Shown here: positions 1,818-8,800 of the stretch, in pieces
How the letters are laid out: every line of letters starts with the position of its first letter
Position numbering within the stretch: position 1 is the first letter of the stretch
Virus record (IMG/VR): IMGVR_UViG_3300025809_000014
Location: 1 to 64,000 of that record
DNA length: 64,000 nucleotides
Direction: 5' to 3' (one strand)
Origin: a virus
Translations under genes and position numbers: made by a program
Notes under the pieces: model-generated
The model's input: only the letters and a program-made list of their open reading frames with translations
What the model was told of the DNA's origin: nothing
Databases searched by the model: none

Positions 1818-3584
1818 ATGGCAGCAAGTAATTTAAATAATGATATACAACTATCACATCCTTTATACAAGAATGATCCTGGAAGAACTAGACCAGGAAA
1901 GGATGCTGATGGTGTAGTAAGAACACCTAGTAGTGAGACAGAAGACATTGCTGCTCATTCAACTATTCTGGATAGCGTTTCAGATAATGGTAAGTTTGAA
2001 TATCTTATACCTATTATAAATAACTTGGAATCTGTAAGAGAGGATTTACAAGATCTTTATACATGGACTGTTTGTGCATTTGGAAAAGATTGTAGTAAAG
2101 CTGCATCTCAGGGACCCAAAGGGGATACTGGAGCACAAGGTCCAAAAGGTGACACAGGTTCACAAGGACCTATAGGTAATACAGGACTAACTGGTGCTCA
2201 AGGTGCCCAAGGTGCTACTGGACTAAGAGGTTTACAAGGAGCAACAGGATCTCAAGGAGCAACAGGTAATAGTGGTACATCTGGTACTTCAGGAAATTCT
2301 GGTACAGCAGGTACTAGCGGTACTAGTGGTGGAAAAGGAGCAACAGGAAATACTGGAGCACAAGGTGTAAAAGGAGACACAGGAGCACAGGGTATACAAG
2401 GTGTAAAGGGTGATAAAGGTGCACAGGGAGATGCTGGATGGGGTATAACCATGAAAGGTGAGGTGGCTACTGAAGCTAACCTACCTTCTACAGGTAATTC
2501 TAACGGTGATGCTTATATTGTTCAAGCAGATGACTCTATTTGGTTATGGACATCAGCTGAGGGGTGGATAAGTGGTGGTTCTATAAAAGGACCTAAAGGA
2601 GATAAAGGTGATACTGGTGCTCAGGGAGCAACAGGTGCTCAGGGCCCACAGGGTGTCAAAGGAAATACTGGAGCAACAGGTTCACAGGGAGTTAAGGGAA
2701 ACACTGGTGCTACTGGAGCTGCTGGAACTAGTGGTGTAGACGGTGCTAAAGGAGATCAAGGAATTCAAGGGGTTAAAGGAAATACTGGATCTGCTGGTTC
2801 AAATGGATCCAATGGAGCACAAGGTATTCAAGGTATTCAGGGTGAAAAAGGAGATACTGGGGCTACTGGATCTCAAGGAATACAAGGAGTAAAAGGTAAT
2901 ACTGGAAATACAGGAGCAGCTGGTGCTAATGGAACTTCTGGTACTTCTGGAGTGAACGGAGCAACTGGACCTAAAGGTGATACTGGGTCTAAAGGTAACA
3001 CTGGGGCAGCTGGAGCAAACGGAACTTCTGGAACTAGTGGTGCTAAAGGTAATACAGGATCTACAGGTAGTCAAGGAGCACAAGGAAACCCAGGTGCCAA
3101 TGGTACATCTGGTACTTCTGGAATCAATGGAGCTAAAGGTAACACTGGTTCTACAGGTGCACAAGGAGTTAAAGGAAATACAGGTAATGCAGGAGCTAAT
3201 GGTACATCTGGCACAAGTGGATCCTCTGGTGTAAATGGAGCTAAAGGTAATACAGGTAATACAGGATCCCCTGGATCAAATGGTACATCAGGTGTTAACG
3301 GAGCAACAGGTTCACAAGGTCCAAAAGGTGATCAAGGTATACAAGGGATACAGGGTGCAACAGGTAATACAGGTGCAACTGGTGGTAAAGGAGATACAGG
3401 AGCTACTGGAGCAACAGGTCCAGCTGGAAGTAATGCAACAATAGCATGGTTTGCTGCATGTGGAGACAAAGAAACAGACCTTTATGTTGCATCAATTTGT
3501 ATAAATGAGAAAGGTGGTTATATAGGCTTTACAAATAACAAAGGTGCAACTGTTTATTGTACAAAAGTTACCCCAAAGCTTTAA
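1818..3584 (+). CDS. Collagen-like (Gly-X-Y) fibre/virion protein
   Basis: Two long G-X-Y tracts (GPKGDTGAQ, GTSGTS, GANGTS) interrupted by a LPSTGNSNGDAYIV...WLWT...W globular insert common in phage collagen proteins. Confidence 0.85.
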   Translation: MAASNLNNDIQLSHPLYKNDPGRTRPGKDADGVVRTPSSETEDIAAHSTILDSVSDNGKFEYLIPIINNLESVREDLQDLYTWTVCAFGKDCSKAASQGPKGDTGAQGPKGDTGSQGPIGNTGLTGAQGAQGATGLRGLQGATGSQGATGNSGTSGTSGNSGTAGTSGTSGGKGATGNTGAQGVKGDTGAQGIQGVKGDKGAQGDAGWGITMKGEVATEANLPSTGNSNGDAYIVQADDSIWLWTSAEGWISGGSIKGPKGDKGDTGAQGATGAQGPQGVKGNTGATGSQGVKGNTGATGAAGTSGVDGAKGDQGIQGVKGNTGSAGSNGSNGAQGIQGIQGEKGDTGATGSQGIQGVKGNTGNTGAAGANGTSGTSGVNGATGPKGDTGSKGNTGAAGANGTSGTSGAKGNTGSTGSQGAQGNPGANGTSGTSGINGAKGNTGSTGAQGVKGNTGNAGANGTSGTSGSSGVNGAKGNTGNTGSPGSNGTSGVNGATGSQGPKGDQGIQGIQGATGNTGATGGKGDTGATGATGPAGSNATIAWFAACGDKETDLYVASICINEKGGYIGFTNNKGATVYCTKVTPKL

Positions 3585-6528
3585 TTATATCAATAACCTT
3601 ATTAGATTTTATACCTCTATGGCATTCAAAGTGTCTAGGGGTATTTTTATGTTCAGGGCACCAATCCCAATCTCCTTTATCAAACTTATGGTTAGGATTA
3701 TTCCAACACCCATGACATAAAGATTCATCAGTAACTCTATAACAACTGAATTCGTGATCAGCTTCTGTAAAGTTTGATATCATCACAACAGGTGTACCTA
3801 TAGCCCAAGCTAACCAACTAAGTCCACTAGATAGCCCTATAAAGAACTCACTCTGTCTTATACAGTCAATAGTGTATTCTAAACTGGTATCAACTATCTT
3901 CTCACAATTATCAAAAGGATTGTTTTCTATAGATGTGTTGATAATAAAGTAACCTTGTTCATGTAAATAGTTTATAACTTCCTGCCACCCTTCTCTTGTC
4001 CAGAACTTACAACCAGCTGTAGAGTTAGTAGCTATAGTTACATACTTGCCTGGAACATTGTAGTTATCTTTCATACCACATTCGTTCCCCCAGTTACTTT
4101 TAACTCTTGGCACTATTTCTTTGTGCGTCAGCCCTAAAATATTGGAGGCGGCCTTTTGTAACGAAATTGTATTTGGCAACTCTGGCTCTCTATTCTTGTC
4201 ATAAAACCAACCTATCTTATACATTGCATATATATTAGGTACTTCTGAACCAGGGTTTACAAATTCTAATTCAGGATACACCTCTTCAAATAAGAAGTTC
4301 TTAAAAGTACTTACAATCACTTTACAATTATGCTTATTCTGAAACTCTAATACATAAGGTATCCATGCTATAGAGTCTCCTAAGGAGCTACTGTCAAAAG
4401 ATATATAGACACGCTTATCTTCTAAGTTTAATGTTTCATTATACACCTCTACACCATCCTTTAACACAACAGTTTTCCACTTTGTATAGTATTCTCTATA
4501 AACAGTTGACCAGTGATTAACCTTCATAACATTATGATATACTAGCTCTTCTCCATCAAGTAGATGAACAGCGAATTCGCTTTCAGATGTACCTGTAATT
4601 TCTATTCTTGGCTTTCCTATAAAGCTTTGATTTATTTGATAATCATCGTGACTTTTTACTTCTAGATTTAAAACATCCTCATATAAATTAACATGCTTTT
4701 TACCAAAGACACTACTAGTGTTATGTGTAGGCACCTCATATTTTAAAGGCTCATTTAACAAGCGCTTTAGTTGGTTCTTCATCTTCATAGGGTTTAGATC
4801 CTCTATGTAAGGTGTGAACATATCTTTATACTGTGCAAGATTACGTGCTAATATAGGTAGGCCATATGAAATAGCTTCTCTAATTGCTAGTGGGTTACAT
4901 TCCCATACAGAGTTAAACATAAATGCATCTGCAGCTAATAAGAATTTATCTACATCATTACGTTCTCCCCACACGGTAACATTACTTGGCAAGTCTGTCA
5001 TTAAAGGTTCCCAATAGTCTTGAAAGTTTCCAGCTTGGTTACCAACAAAATGAAACTGTACATTTGGTAGCTTTCTTGCAATAGCTATACCTTCTCCTTG
5101 GTTCTTACCTTTAGTCCAGAGCCCTACATTGACTACATGTTTTTTATTGATATCTAATCCTAAGTCATATTTAGCATTCATCTTGCTCTGCCAGTCATAT
5201 ATCACTGCGTCTACTGGAAACTCTAGAACTGCTCTGTGAGAAGGCATGTTTTTAAATGTTTCTAAATGATAAGGTGTACAGAATGCATATGCGTCTGGAT
5301 GGTACCTCTTATCCCTATCAGGTCTAAACGATATATTATGACAAGTTTCTATCACCTTCCAAGATCTGTCTTCAGCATATAGTAAAGGTAATACCTCTTC
5401 TGAACCATCCCCTAAATGCTCACTCATCTCATCTATATGTACAATATCAATACTATTGTATTTTATAATGTCTAGCAGTTCTGTTTTATCTTCACCTAAT
5501 GTGTAGAAGTTAGGTACAAGTTGTTTTATCTGGTTTTTTTGTACAACAAAATGATCACTATAATTAGCCCACTCTACTACATATATATTAAAACCTCTCA
5601 AGGCCTTTATTCTCTTTAGTAGAAACTCAGGCATCCCACCTGTAGAAAGATGTGGTGCTAAAAACAATACTTTTTTAGATAACTTGTTTATCATATCTTG
5701 CATTAAGATTGTATTCTTTTCTCCATGTAAGGCCATAAGATGTTCTTCTTTTGCAGGAACCGCTACCCATTCTGCTGTATGATTAATGCTACCAGTGAAT
5801 TCTAATGTCATTAGATCTACATCCTTTGTATAGTTTATATACATTATAGGAAGCCCTTCATGTATATTATACTTCCACAATAATACATTTGCTATTGTTT
5901 CTTCGTGATATGGTGCATATAACTCATGATTAGTTATAACTTTTGGGTGGTTACACATCCATGACCACTCACTTATAAAATCTTTTGATTGCTGTCCTGC
6001 TACAAAATATCCTGTTTGCCTATACTTGTTTCTAACTGACTGGTCTACATTAAATAGATCACATGCTGGATACTCTAAACTAAGATGTAACTCATCTCTA
6101 GTCTCTACACCACCACGTCCATTTATAAATAGGTAGTCATATATACCTTCTACAAAATAAGGATGTGTACAATTATCAGGGTAATGGTCAAATATTTTGT
6201 TTATGTTTGAAGTTACTACTGTATCAGAATCTATATATGCTACAGTTTTTGCATATTTATCTAAAGCATCTAATATAATAGCTGGCCTTTGAATAAGAAG
6301 CTTGTATATGTTAGGATCACTTCTGTCAATGTAATCTTTTTTTGAGGAATCTGCACTATTTAGTGTCCAAGGTATTGTTCTAGATGCATCATGTACAGAC
6401 TTGTTACAGTTCATCATGTATACAATAACTGGTATATTACTAACATTATTTATACTTTTTACTGCCATTGATACAACATCATAATATGCTTCATTAGCAT
6501 AAAGTACAAAGGCTTTATCTACTTTCAT
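3568..6528 (-). CDS. Three-domain glycosyltransferase: GT-A domain (DSD), GT4-like GT-B domain, and Aah/TibC-type autotransporter O-heptosyltransferase domain
   Basis: N-terminal YIDSDTVV. Middle APHLSTGGMP...FNSVWECNPLAIREAISYGLP. C-terminal SLGDSIAW, FFIGLSSGLSWLAWA and the 4-Cys iron-finger CHGCWN...WCP...ECHR. Confidence 0.8.
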   Translation of the reverse strand: MKVDKAFVLYANEAYYDVVSMAVKSINNVSNIPVIVYMMNCNKSVHDASRTIPWTLNSADSSKKDYIDRSDPNIYKLLIQRPAIILDALDKYAKTVAYIDSDTVVTSNINKIFDHYPDNCTHPYFVEGIYDYLFINGRGGVETRDELHLSLEYPACDLFNVDQSVRNKYRQTGYFVAGQQSKDFISEWSWMCNHPKVITNHELYAPYHEETIANVLLWKYNIHEGLPIMYINYTKDVDLMTLEFTGSINHTAEWVAVPAKEEHLMALHGEKNTILMQDMINKLSKKVLFLAPHLSTGGMPEFLLKRIKALRGFNIYVVEWANYSDHFVVQKNQIKQLVPNFYTLGEDKTELLDIIKYNSIDIVHIDEMSEHLGDGSEEVLPLLYAEDRSWKVIETCHNISFRPDRDKRYHPDAYAFCTPYHLETFKNMPSHRAVLEFPVDAVIYDWQSKMNAKYDLGLDINKKHVVNVGLWTKGKNQGEGIAIARKLPNVQFHFVGNQAGNFQDYWEPLMTDLPSNVTVWGERNDVDKFLLAADAFMFNSVWECNPLAIREAISYGLPILARNLAQYKDMFTPYIEDLNPMKMKNQLKRLLNEPLKYEVPTHNTSSVFGKKHVNLYEDVLNLEVKSHDDYQINQSFIGKPRIEITGTSESEFAVHLLDGEELVYHNVMKVNHWSTVYREYYTKWKTVVLKDGVEVYNETLNLEDKRVYISFDSSSLGDSIAWIPYVLEFQNKHNCKVIVSTFKNFLFEEVYPELEFVNPGSEVPNIYAMYKIGWFYDKNREPELPNTISLQKAASNILGLTHKEIVPRVKSNWGNECGMKDNYNVPGKYVTIATNSTAGCKFWTREGWQEVINYLHEQGYFIINTSIENNPFDNCEKIVDTSLEYTIDCIRQSEFFIGLSSGLSWLAWAIGTPVVMISNFTEADHEFSCYRVTDESLCHGCWNNPNHKFDKGDWDWCPEHKNTPRHFECHRGIKSNKVIDIIKALG

Positions 6529-6749: not shown

Positions 6750-7073
6750 ATGGCTGACCACACTGCTTATCAACAACAAGTAAAACAAGAATTAAAAAAC
6801 ATGGACCATCGTTTAGACGAGATGGAGGAAAAAATGAACTCCATTGATACAAAATTAACACAAGTAGTTGATGCAATATTAGGAAACTCCCTCACTAAAA
6901 CAGGTGGATTTGTTAATGACATTGATGAACTTAAAAAGAAAATAGAGTTATTAGAATCACAAGTTGAAAAACAAGAAGAATTTAAAAAGAAATTCTCTTG
7001 GACTGTTGGACTTGTTACAGCAGGGGCACTAGTTATACAGTATTTAATTAATCTATATTCTAAAATTAAATAA
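6750..7073 (+). CDS. Coiled-coil protein with C-terminal TM helix (holin/antiholin candidate)
   Basis: Heptad-rich N-terminus, hydrophobic C-terminus, first gene of the lysis cassette. Confidence 0.5.
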   Translation: MADHTAYQQQVKQELKNMDHRLDEMEEKMNSIDTKLTQVVDAILGNSLTKTGGFVNDIDELKKKIELLESQVEKQEEFKKKFSWTVGLVTAGALVIQYLINLYSKIK

Positions 7074-7074
7074 T

Positions 7075-7269
7075 ATGAAAAAGTTAAAAAACATTATAAG
7101 CGTTATTAAGAACTGGATTATTTCAAATGGAGTTGAAGGCGCTTTAGGATTAATTCTTGGACTCATTCTTTGGGTTGCAGGATATAAGATATGGGCAGGT
7201 GTGTCTTTTGGCGTATTTGCACATAAGAACTGGGATATTGTAAAGTCTTGGATCAATAAAAATATATGA
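7075..7269 (+). CDS. Small membrane protein, holin candidate
   Basis: 64 aa with hydrophobic segments, upstream of the endolysin. Confidence 0.5.
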   Translation: MKKLKNIISVIKNWIISNGVEGALGLILGLILWVAGYKIWAGVSFGVFAHKNWDIVKSWINKNI

Positions 7270-7505
7270 GTAGAAAAGAGAAGATAGATTATTACTTAAA
7301 GAAATGGATTAGTAGGAAGCTCACTGTGTTTATAGTAGCTTGCTTTGGTCTATTCTCTGATAATATAACATCTTCTGACTGGGTAATAATAGCCACTGTA
7401 TACATATCTATACAAGGTGTTTCTGATCTAGTAGAAAAACTATTCAAAGCAAAGAAATCAGATAGTCCAATATATAATCCTTATTCTAATGAAGAAGGGC
7501 CATGA
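7266..7505 (+). CDS. Holin candidate (2 TM)
   Basis: W-x-SRK motif followed by two hydrophobic helices; ATGA-coupled to the endolysin. Confidence 0.55.
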   Translation: MSRKEKIDYYLKKWISRKLTVFIVACFGLFSDNITSSDWVIIATVYISIQGVSDLVEKLFKAKKSDSPIYNPYSNEEGP

Positions 7506-7951
7506 GAAGAATAGACAAGATCATATTACATTGTAGTGCTACTCCTGCTGGAAAACACTTTGACGTTGATGAAATTAGAAGATGGCATGTTGAAGGAAGA
7601 GGTTGGAGAGATATAGGATATCACTATATAGTTTATTTAGATGGAAGTATACATAACGGAAGACCTGTTGAAATCCCAGGGGCTCACGTCAGGGGAAAAA
7701 ATAAACACAGCATTGGTGTTTGTTACATTGGTGGAGTATCTGCAGTAAAAGATAAAAGAGGTAAGTGGCCTGCTGAAGACACAAGAACACCTGAACAAAA
7801 AGAAACTTTATGGAAATTACTCATGGAGTTGATGGCTTGTTATGATGGTGCAACTCTTCACGGACACAATGAGTTTGCCAGGAAAGCTTGTCCAAGTTTT
7901 TCTGTGGCAAGAGAATATAAAGATATAATAGAATTCTATGAAGATAATTAA
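7502..7951 (+). CDS. Endolysin, N-acetylmuramoyl-L-alanine amidase (T7 lysozyme-like)
   Basis: IILHCSAT, GWRDIGYHY, GAHV, GHNE...KACPSF zinc-amidase motifs. Confidence 0.93.
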   Translation: MRRIDKIILHCSATPAGKHFDVDEIRRWHVEGRGWRDIGYHYIVYLDGSIHNGRPVEIPGAHVRGKNKHSIGVCYIGGVSAVKDKRGKWPAEDTRTPEQKETLWKLLMELMACYDGATLHGHNEFARKACPSFSVAREYKDIIEFYEDN

Positions 7952-8276
7952 CTTTTTCAAAGAACAATGGTTTTTTGTTTTATTTATTATAGTTTTATTA
8001 ATGATGCAATATGAATCAGATAAGACTATAAAGAAGTACGAAGTACAGTTAAAAGAGTTAAACTTACAAATAGAAATCTACGAAAGACAAGATGCACGTA
8101 TGCAAATTCTTGTAGATAGTTTTAGTACTTTAGATACTAGAGTGGTGGAGAAAATAAGAACCATCAAAGAAAAAGAATATGTACAAATTAAAATGGTTGA
8201 TGATATGCCTGTTAGTGACCTTCAAGAGTTTTTCACAGACAGATACTCTGAGGGCTCCAGTAGTAACACTAACTGA
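7938..8276 (+). CDS. Inner-membrane spanin (i-spanin) candidate
   Basis: N-terminal TM helix plus coiled coil, directly after the endolysin and overlapped by the next gene. Confidence 0.6.
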   Translation: MKIINFFKEQWFFVLFIIVLLMMQYESDKTIKKYEVQLKELNLQIEIYERQDARMQILVDSFSTLDTRVVEKIRTIKEKEYVQIKMVDDMPVSDLQEFFTDRYSEGSSSNTN

Positions 8277-8652
8277 GAAGCAAGCTAAGCAGGTAATAAA
8301 AGATCTAATTCAATATGATAATCTTAAACTTATAACAGCAAAGTTAGAGGATAGAATATCATTATTTGAAAAGAAAGAGTTTAGTCTTCTACAGAGATTA
8401 AACTTGAAGGACAGTATTATCTCTACCAAAAATGCTTACATAGACATACAAGAAGATATAATAAACAAGAAAAAACCTCTTAGGTTTAATGGTTTTGTGG
8501 GTGTACAAACTTTTCAAGCATCTTTAATAGATCCTATTCTATATTTTCAAACAGATATGGAACTTAAAAAAATAACTGTAGGAGTTAGAGTATTTGCACA
8601 AGTTAATAATGTTGTAGGATATGGCTTTGTTTTACAATACAAAATATTTTAA
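8179..8652 (+). CDS. Outer-membrane spanin candidate: signal peptide, coiled coil, C-terminal amphipathic beta-strands ending in Phe
   Basis: MYKLKWLMICLLVTFKSFS|Q signal; starts inside the i-spanin gene; ends GFVLQYKIF. Confidence 0.55.
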   Translation: MYKLKWLMICLLVTFKSFSQTDTLRAPVVTLTEKQAKQVIKDLIQYDNLKLITAKLEDRISLFEKKEFSLLQRLNLKDSIISTKNAYIDIQEDIINKKKPLRFNGFVGVQTFQASLIDPILYFQTDMELKKITVGVRVFAQVNNVVGYGFVLQYKIF

Positions 8653-8653
8653 T

Positions 8654-8800
8654 ATGAATGATTGGGAATTAGAAATAGCATTTCACTGGCCACACCAAAG
8701 ATTTGCACTAGGTTGGGAATTTATAGAACCAACAGAAAAGTTTAATTATACAACTATTAAGTTATATCTGTTTGCAATATCAATAACATTAGACTTCTAA
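8654..8800 (+). CDS. Hypothetical 48-aa protein (MNDWELEIAFHWPHQRFALGWEF...)
   Basis: Read from the sequence (below the track cut-off); starts 1 nt after the previous stop. Confidence 0.6.
   Translation: MNDWELEIAFHWPHQRFALGWEFIEPTEKFNYTTIKLYLFAISITLDF

Follow-up and report, generated by a model that had tools for sequence, protein, structure and literature searches.

An overlapping gene pair of an uncultured marine phage encodes what is, on balance, probably an analogue of the spanins with which phages breach the outer membrane of their hosts, one that dispenses with the lipoprotein, its outer partner being anchored by beta strands. The pair lies in a stretch of 64,000 nucleotides (hereafter the window; positions 1 to 64,000 of IMG/VR record IMGVR_UViG_3300025809_000014), the record itself being a contig of 97,655 bp with 34% G+C and an estimated completeness of ~86%. 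A first-pass annotation, made from the sequence alone, had noticed an Rz/Rz1-like overlap behind the endolysin, and both open reading frames (ORFs) are indeed found directly after the amidase gene, sharing 98 nt (8179–8276) in different frames. The two proteins, referred to below as the inner and outer partner, have the following features in window coordinates.

7938..8276, plus strand: inner partner (P0002), resembling an inner-membrane spanin (i-spanin), 112 amino acids (aa); a membrane helix at the N-terminus, then a long helix, with a conserved motif at the C-terminus.
7968..8006, plus strand: predicted membrane helix of the inner partner, aa 11–23, WFFVLFIIVLLMM, from hydropathy; type II, N-terminus in.
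8220..8246, plus strand: C-terminal motif of the inner partner, LQEFFTDRY, aa 95–103, from the alignment; kept as LQxFFxDRY even in the most remote pairs (L025–L027).
8179..8652, plus strand: outer partner (P0001), 157 aa including the signal peptide, in the +1 frame relative to the inner partner; starts MYKLKWLMICLLVTFKSFS↓Q.
8179..8235, plus strand: signal peptide of the outer partner, aa 1–19, with a signal peptidase I (SPI)-type site S-F-S↓Q; Gln20 is the expected mature N-terminus.
8260..8307, plus strand: N-terminal motif of the mature outer partner, aa 28–43, VVTLTEKQAKQVIKDL; V29, L31, E33, Q35, A36, K41, D42 and L43 are invariant in the alignment.

The inner partner has the layout of an i-spanin, with type II topology, an N-terminal membrane helix flanked on its N-side by Lys2 and Lys8, and a periplasmic coiled coil. 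This layout recurs in 27 of 27 related viral loci, which range from 85% down to 33% identity. In each of them an upstream partner with an N-terminal hydrophobic helix (best 17-residue hydropathy window 1.66–2.71 across all 27 relatives) overlaps the outer-partner gene by 56–98 nt, the adjacency seen for spanin genes in lysis cassettes, and ends in LQxFFxDRY or a close variant. Neither Pfam nor PHROGs holds a family for the inner partner, and the same is true of the outer partner, 29 of its diverse relatives and the fused form described below. The outer-partner family nonetheless comprises ~125 clusters at 90% identity, conserved over their full length and all from uncultured viral contigs that are largely marine; many of these contigs are ~110 kb long, and several clusters come from Tara and other marine samples. 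HMMER over 1.84 billion representatives returned 71 (at the 50% identity level) with E ≤ 0.001, and no form of the family of at least 276 aa was found. Given these full-length clusters and representatives, and a partner kept in every locus, the outer partner is not a chance ORF. Public gene calls of its family often begin at codon 13 and give 145-aa products (window 8179–8215), a start that loses the signal peptide and thereby hides the overlap with the upstream gene.

Judged by its sequence, the outer partner carries an SPI-type signal and no lipid anchor. It lacks the signal peptidase II (SPII) signal and lipobox cysteine of an outer-membrane spanin (o-spanin). Its Cys10, preceded by Ile at position −1, falls within the hydrophobic core of the signal peptide. 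Of the 56 relatives with a complete N-terminus, 38 share this Cys and 18 have Phe, Ile or Ala instead; position −1 is occupied by Leu, Ile or Val in 53, and the lipobox consensus fits just two. Cysteine is missing altogether from 116 of 132 mature outer partners. By contrast with this variable position, the cleavage triplet [FIT]SQ is near-universal, occurring in 128 of the 143 relatives that cover those columns (158 unique relatives in all). The DNA at 8220–8246, read in the outer-partner frame, gives the end of the signal peptide and the cleavage site, FKSFS↓QTD; the FSQ triplet is under two constraints, its DNA also specifying, in the inner-partner frame, the FFT of LQxFFxDRY. The first-pass annotation had claimed a signal ending SFS↓Q with no lipobox Cys at the cleavage site, and both points are borne out; its statement that SPI substrates of Bacteroidota often start with Gln agrees with published work in which Bacteroidetes proteins cut by signal peptidase I have, as a rule, Gln at +1 (PMC5837995, PMC10653852).

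Structural prediction of the outer partner revealed two elements beyond the N-terminal motif.

8275..8469, plus strand: single long helix, aa 33–97 (65 residues, ~97 Å if straight), AlphaFold2, block pLDDT (predicted local distance difference test) 80–93.
8479..8649, plus strand: C-terminal four-strand unit, aa 101–157, from AlphaFold2, Foldseek and residue statistics.

In the AlphaFold2 model, obtained with 78 relatives (pLDDT 79), the strands comprise residues 101–110, 120–129, 132–141 and 147–154, the same four alternating strands that the first-pass annotation had listed. They are amphipathic, 8–10 residues long, and joined by connections of 9, 2 (a KK turn) and 5 residues. As in outer-membrane proteins, the longer loops share one side, and the helix junction, the KK turn and the C-terminus are grouped on the other. 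Across 158 sequences, the 20 positions of the hydrophobic strand face are 0.1% charged and 3.9% polar with a mean hydropathy of +2.7, whereas the opposite face is 25% charged and 52% polar and contains the near-invariant residues G108, G135 and K155. The terminal Phe singled out in the first-pass annotation is real as well: the protein ends YKIF, and YKIF or YKLF closes 135 of the 158 sequences, with F157 in 154 and Y154 in 148. Together with hydrophobic residues at positions 148, 150, 152, 154 and 156, this is the pattern of a C-terminal strand of the type handled by the beta-barrel assembly machinery (BAM).

As each chain contributes four strands, a closed barrel, which takes at least eight, would require oligomerisation. 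Prediction of a complex of three mature outer partners (residues 21–157) scored 0.02 against a mark of 0.42 and speaks neither for nor against an oligomer. Mean-field direct coupling analysis of the 158 sequences, whose effective number of 68 is too few, gave no consistent register for pairs between strand 1 and strand 4, and we treat its output as noise.

The best Foldseek matches in the PDB were anchors of trimeric autotransporters, namely AtaA (9vnj), Hia (3emo, 2gr7 and 2gr8) and YadA (2lme), along with a strand fragment of EspP on BAM. Superposing the four-strand unit on Hia 1022–1098 (2gr8) gave a root-mean-square deviation (rmsd) of 2.8 Å over 56 columns. The likeness to trimeric autotransporters suggested in the first-pass annotation thus survives in part: these anchors are the best fold matches and there are four strands per chain, but the E-values are weak and the Pfam family YadA_anchor is not matched, either at E ≤ 1 by P0001 and 29 diverse relatives or in a profile search of PDB sequences. 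That profile search returned nothing meaningful for the outer partner, and a wide VIA-align search with the monomer gave long-helix matches alone, which are uninformative on the strand unit. An ESM Atlas lead to DUF6808 (PF20647), present in 13–40% of the members of some neighbouring clusters, was left unconfirmed, as the hidden Markov model had no match at E ≤ 10 in the genome or in the records of five relatives.

These fold matches invite a different account, in which the outer partner is a miniature trimeric autotransporter whose helix passes through its own barrel onto the surface, for instance for superinfection exclusion or surface alteration. The autotransporter anchors likewise present a helix, a short linker and then strand 1. 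However, full-length superpositions on AtaA and Hia have rmsd values of 17–19 Å, so that the modelled helix is oriented otherwise than in autotransporters, and the missing YadA_anchor match also speaks against this account, as does the pairing of the N-terminal motif with the inner partner's periplasmic C-terminus, which is maintained genetically in 27 of 27 loci. Further evidence against surface display comes from naturally fused versions of the pair.

P0155 (238 aa) matches the outer partner in its C-terminal half only. Starting from it we found a family of 14 clusters at 59–68% identity, 206–238 aa long (most 232–238), drawn from four data sources, one cluster alone having 29 member sequences. 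The N-terminal half of these proteins aligns with inner partners at 25–38% identity and has IDSL, DSLPxS and FFxDRY in common with them; the C-terminal half aligns with outer partners, without the signal peptide, and the N-terminal motif of the outer partner directly follows FFxDRY. By alignment, then, the fusions are single chains that run from an inner-membrane helix through to the four strands. Their existence indicates that the two window proteins are functionally linked. It also places the long helix of the outer partner in the periplasm: in the fusions ~20 residues connect this helix to one beginning in the inner membrane, so that it cannot be extracellular, and display on the surface in the manner of an autotransporter is excluded. 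We therefore regard the miniature autotransporter as most improbable.

AlphaFold2 modelled the fusion, from an alignment of fused, inner and outer sequences, with a pLDDT of 90.1 and a predicted template modelling score (pTM) of 0.66. The model contains helices at 11–89, 92–103 and 114–177 followed by the four strands, and folds into a long antiparallel two-helix hairpin of ~100 Å, one end of which carries both the membrane helix and the strand unit. In the PDB it is best matched by long hairpins of antiparallel coiled coil: EnvC in FtsEX-EnvC (1.8e-4), colicin E3, EmrA, Smc arms and p85 iSH2.

From these features we infer that the outer partner inserts in the outer membrane as an oligomer, binds the inner partner and serves in lysis, and propose the following mechanism. 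The N-terminal helix of the 112-aa inner partner would lodge in the inner membrane, from which one long helix of the protein would extend into the periplasm. The 157-aa outer partner would leave through Sec, and signal peptidase I would cleave it behind SFS to give a lipid-free protein that starts with Gln; its four-strand unit would then insert in the outer membrane through the host BAM, probably as a homo-oligomeric barrel of two or three copies, with the helix hanging down into the periplasm. There, the outer-partner motif VVxLxExQAxxVxKDL would meet the inner partner's C-terminal LQxFFxDRY, tip to tip. Fully extended, the two helices (~65 residues each, plus the junction) would reach ~200 Å, and the Gram-negative periplasm is ~200 Å wide. 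Once the endolysin has removed the wall, the helices could zip into the antiparallel hairpin and draw the inner-membrane helix and the outer-membrane strands together, so that the outer membrane is fused or ruptured. Such a collapse from an extended form to a hairpin is the same as that proposed for Rz/Rz1.

The genes that precede the pair look like those of a lysis cassette.

6750–7073, plus strand: XhlA-like protein with an N-terminal coiled coil and a C-terminal membrane helix (phrog_937, 1.1e-6).
7075–7269 and 7266–7505, plus strand: two small holin-like proteins, apparently with two membrane helices each, as read from the sequence.
7502..7951, plus strand: endolysin, an N-acetylmuramoyl-L-alanine amidase (Pfam Amidase_2, 1.5e-11; phrog_822, 1e-52).

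The order is therefore an XhlA-like gene and two holin-like genes, for whose products we infer a holin role, then the Amidase_2 endolysin, and then the overlapping pair; the 3' end of the endolysin gene (7502–7951) shares 14 nt with the start of the inner-partner ORF (7938–8276). The nearest relatives of the endolysin are from Bacteroides phages (56% identity), and the sole DNA match of the lysis region to cultured phages joins the 79-aa holin-like gene to Flavobacterium phage vB_FspP_elemo (70% over 173 bp), both in agreement with the Gln at +1 of the outer partner. A 59-aa ORF (window 8621–8800, plus strand) begins before the outer-partner gene has ended. Its product lacks a signal peptide, appears rich in beta structure, ends ..ITLDF and has no Pfam or PHROG match; the ORF recurs behind the pair in many relatives (L001–L007) and elsewhere in the lysis region of L020 (5051–5200), and may be another member of the lysis cassette.

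In related loci, the endolysin beside the pair is an Amidase_2 protein (L001–L021), a Peptidase_M15_3 protein (L022, 7e-21) or a Peptidase_M15_4 protein (L020, 5.5e-15), and the fused form stands beside a GH19-type enzyme in L028 (phrog_181, 4e-55), with overlapping stop and start codons (743–746). Having four unrelated wall-degrading enzymes as neighbours points to a general role in lysis and not to the regulation of one enzyme. In L029, a NUMOD-type homing-endonuclease-like gene (3156–3857, weak Pfam match) lies between the GH19 endolysin and the fused gene, whose counterparts in L028 abut. Upstream of the L029 endolysin, positions 562–2522 encode two exported proteins of 235 aa (..LFSQ↓V) and 418 aa (..SYSQ↓T), the latter having a linker rich in Pro, Ala, Lys and Glu and a C-terminal half rich in beta structure.

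Several observations, set out in this and the following two paragraphs, weigh against an outer partner anchored by beta strands. Its fold matches to autotransporter anchors are weak (E 0.016–0.2), and no sequence-level similarity was found between it and any Pfam family or solved structure. A tblastn search of 50,697 phage genomes gave no match to the family, and no cultured phage was found to carry it; two scans of bacterial genomes also yielded no prophage copy. In the terminal Y-K-[IL]-F, the Tyr stands three positions before the end, compared with two in the classical Y-x-F. Moreover, the hydrophobic/polar alternation of the strands would also be expected of a soluble, oligomeric beta core whose hydrophobic face points to the interior, as in the body of the Skp/OmpH trimer. 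The strands could accordingly be an oligomerisation core, and the pair a periplasmic coiled-coil assembly anchored in the inner membrane, not in the outer, and serving another late function (holin or endolysin regulation, or scaffolding). Alternation cannot tell an inward from an outward face, the AlphaFold2 hairpin sets the strands beside the inner-membrane helix, and the best fold match of the fusion, EnvC, is itself an amidase regulator with a coiled-coil hairpin. Set against this are the four unrelated endolysin classes, which are not what an enzyme-specific regulator would accompany, the obviously membrane-type C-terminus of the helix-ended variants described next, and the strands themselves, which are long and have a polar face about as conserved as the hydrophobic one (G108, G135 and K155), unusual for a solvent-exposed surface. 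The OmpH family was also unmatched in all Pfam scans. We judge a soluble core to be quite unlikely.

A further challenge comes from remote homologous pairs (L025–L027, P0179, P0187 and P0193) in which the protein ends not in strands but in a hydrophobic helix of 14–17 residues, while the signal peptide, the N-terminal motif and the inner partner are kept. A C-terminal hydrophobic helix on a Sec-exported protein is expected to stay in the inner membrane. Three of these pairs (L025:1968–2673, L026:3697–4408 and L027:2319–3024) lie directly upstream of the terminase large subunit gene (phrog_2, 1e-51), and the retrieved flanks of L025–L027 contain no endolysin. As far as their sequences go, the helix-ended variants support a membrane-embedded C-terminus in general, and the swap of strands for a helix in one remote branch implies that the beta-barrel may be one form only of a more general C-terminal membrane-inserting element. 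They would also suit a lysis complex that works otherwise: the outer partner would wait in the periplasm bound to the inner partner, and its C-terminal unit would insert in the inner face of the outer membrane only after wall degradation, like a fusion peptide or a tethered membrane-disrupting peptide. The C-terminal motif, offset by one residue from the classical signal, is in keeping with such late insertion, and phage phiKT is reported to disrupt the outer membrane by a peptide and not by a spanin (bioRxiv 10.1101/515445). Against late insertion, the regular strands of 8–10 residues, the two-residue turn, the near-invariant Phe and the conserved Gly residues of the polar face resemble a folded barrel unit, and the best fold matches are true membrane anchors. 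We consider late insertion unlikely.

Finally, a canonical o-spanin elsewhere in the genome had been named beforehand as an observation that would refute the proposal. Lipobox scans in six frames of the 97.7-kb record, itself ~86% complete, returned short or antisense chance ORFs only and no credible lipoprotein gene. An antisense 47-aa ORF with an IFSC motif (7960..7817, minus strand) was rejected as a chance occurrence, as it lies inside the endolysin gene and has no equivalent in 29 related loci. The same type of scan within ~4 kb of the pair in those 29 loci recovered one convincing lipoprotein, in L022 (2640–3023, 127 aa, LLLSC↓NDKE), and none in the other 28. Recovery of the L022 gene indicates that the scan is able to detect lipoproteins and that they are generally absent near the pair. 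In L022, however, the lipoprotein gene comes immediately after one for an 86-aa protein that has a membrane helix and a coiled coil (2380–3023), and the two could be a canonical separated spanin working alongside the pair; a lipoprotein gene is likewise possible in the part of our record that is absent. If so, the pair would be a second, accessory envelope system, with the real outer-membrane disruptor located in the unsequenced ~14% or present in unrecognised form. L022, which holds both kinds of gene, and the completeness of the record lend this some credence, whereas the 28 of 29 loci lacking a nearby lipoprotein gene and the empty scan of 97.7 kb of genome make it very unlikely.

A spanin analogue without a lipoprotein thus remains our preferred reading, and comparison with known systems shows where it would depart from them. 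Like lambda Rz/Rz1, T7 gp18.5/18.7 and T4 PseT.3/PseT.2, the pair directly follows the endolysin gene and its genes overlap in different frames. As in two-component spanins generally, the inner partner is type II with a periplasmic coiled coil, the outer partner is exported, and the two are proposed to bridge the periplasm and collapse once the wall is gone. The outer partner differs in having no lipobox, usually no Cys, and an SPI cleavage site. Mature Rz1 has roughly 40 aa; the mature outer partner has ~137, is helical and not proline-rich, and ends in four amphipathic strands. The polarity of contact is also reversed: here the N-terminus of the outer partner would meet the C-terminus of the inner partner, as opposed to C-terminus to C-terminus in Rz/Rz1. 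Intermolecular disulfides are near-universal in two-component spanins (PMC6139136), whereas periplasmic cysteines are absent here, P0002 and mature P0001 having none.

The P0155-family fusions resemble unimolecular spanins of the T1 gp11 type in being single chains with one anchor per membrane. T1 gp11 is anchored as a lipoprotein at its N-terminus and by a membrane helix at its C-terminus, while the fusions have no lipobox and are inverted, with an N-terminal helix for the inner membrane and strands at the outer end; their periplasmic part is a helical hairpin, in contrast to the beta-rich domain of gp11. Relative to the anchors of YadA, Hia and AtaA, the outer partner shares the succession of helix, short linker, four amphipathic strands and C-terminal aromatic residue, but has no sequence similarity and ends in YK[IL]F. 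It also has no head or stalk passenger, just ~80 residues before the strands, which in the fusions are attached to an inner-membrane helix, and its own helix is expected to be periplasmic and to pair with the inner partner. The orientation of strands and helix proposed for the outer partner is that of TolC-type outer-membrane factors; TolC contributes four strands per protomer to a 12-strand barrel and sends long helices into the periplasm. TolC is, however, ~three times the size, contains an internal repeat and has hairpins of helices, and similarity to it was undetected.

Taking the argument a step further, we tentatively suggest a third structural class of spanin, in which a small oligomeric barrel with four strands per chain is the outer anchor, two-gene and single-chain forms both occur, and the fusogen is a helical hairpin. 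Stretched across the periplasm at first, it would then close up as an antiparallel coiled coil, perhaps with six helices bundled beneath a barrel of 12 strands, in the manner of class I viral fusion proteins, and it might explain how many "spanin-less" phages of Bacteroidota get through the outer membrane. The first-pass annotation had not recognised the architecture as a described one. We found no paper describing an o-spanin of such design anchored as an outer-membrane protein (OMP), but the idea itself was anticipated in theory by Kongari et al. in 2018, who remarked that "an OMP could act as an o-spanin" and counted the phages of Bacteroides and Croceibacter among those lacking spanins (PMC6139136).

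One survey recognised no spanin in ~15% of the phages that infect Gram-negative hosts (bioRxiv 10.1101/515445), and current search rules for spanins look for a lipoprotein (PMC6139136). If our reading is correct, a protein-anchored outer partner would fill part of this gap, and annotators could look for a new signature, namely overlapping genes together with a cleavage site FSQ and a C-terminus YK[IL]F. The natural single-chain version would be an easier object of study and would offer a clean test of spanins as hairpin fusogens. The pair would also be a case of a phage exploiting the barrel-assembly machinery of its host for lysis.

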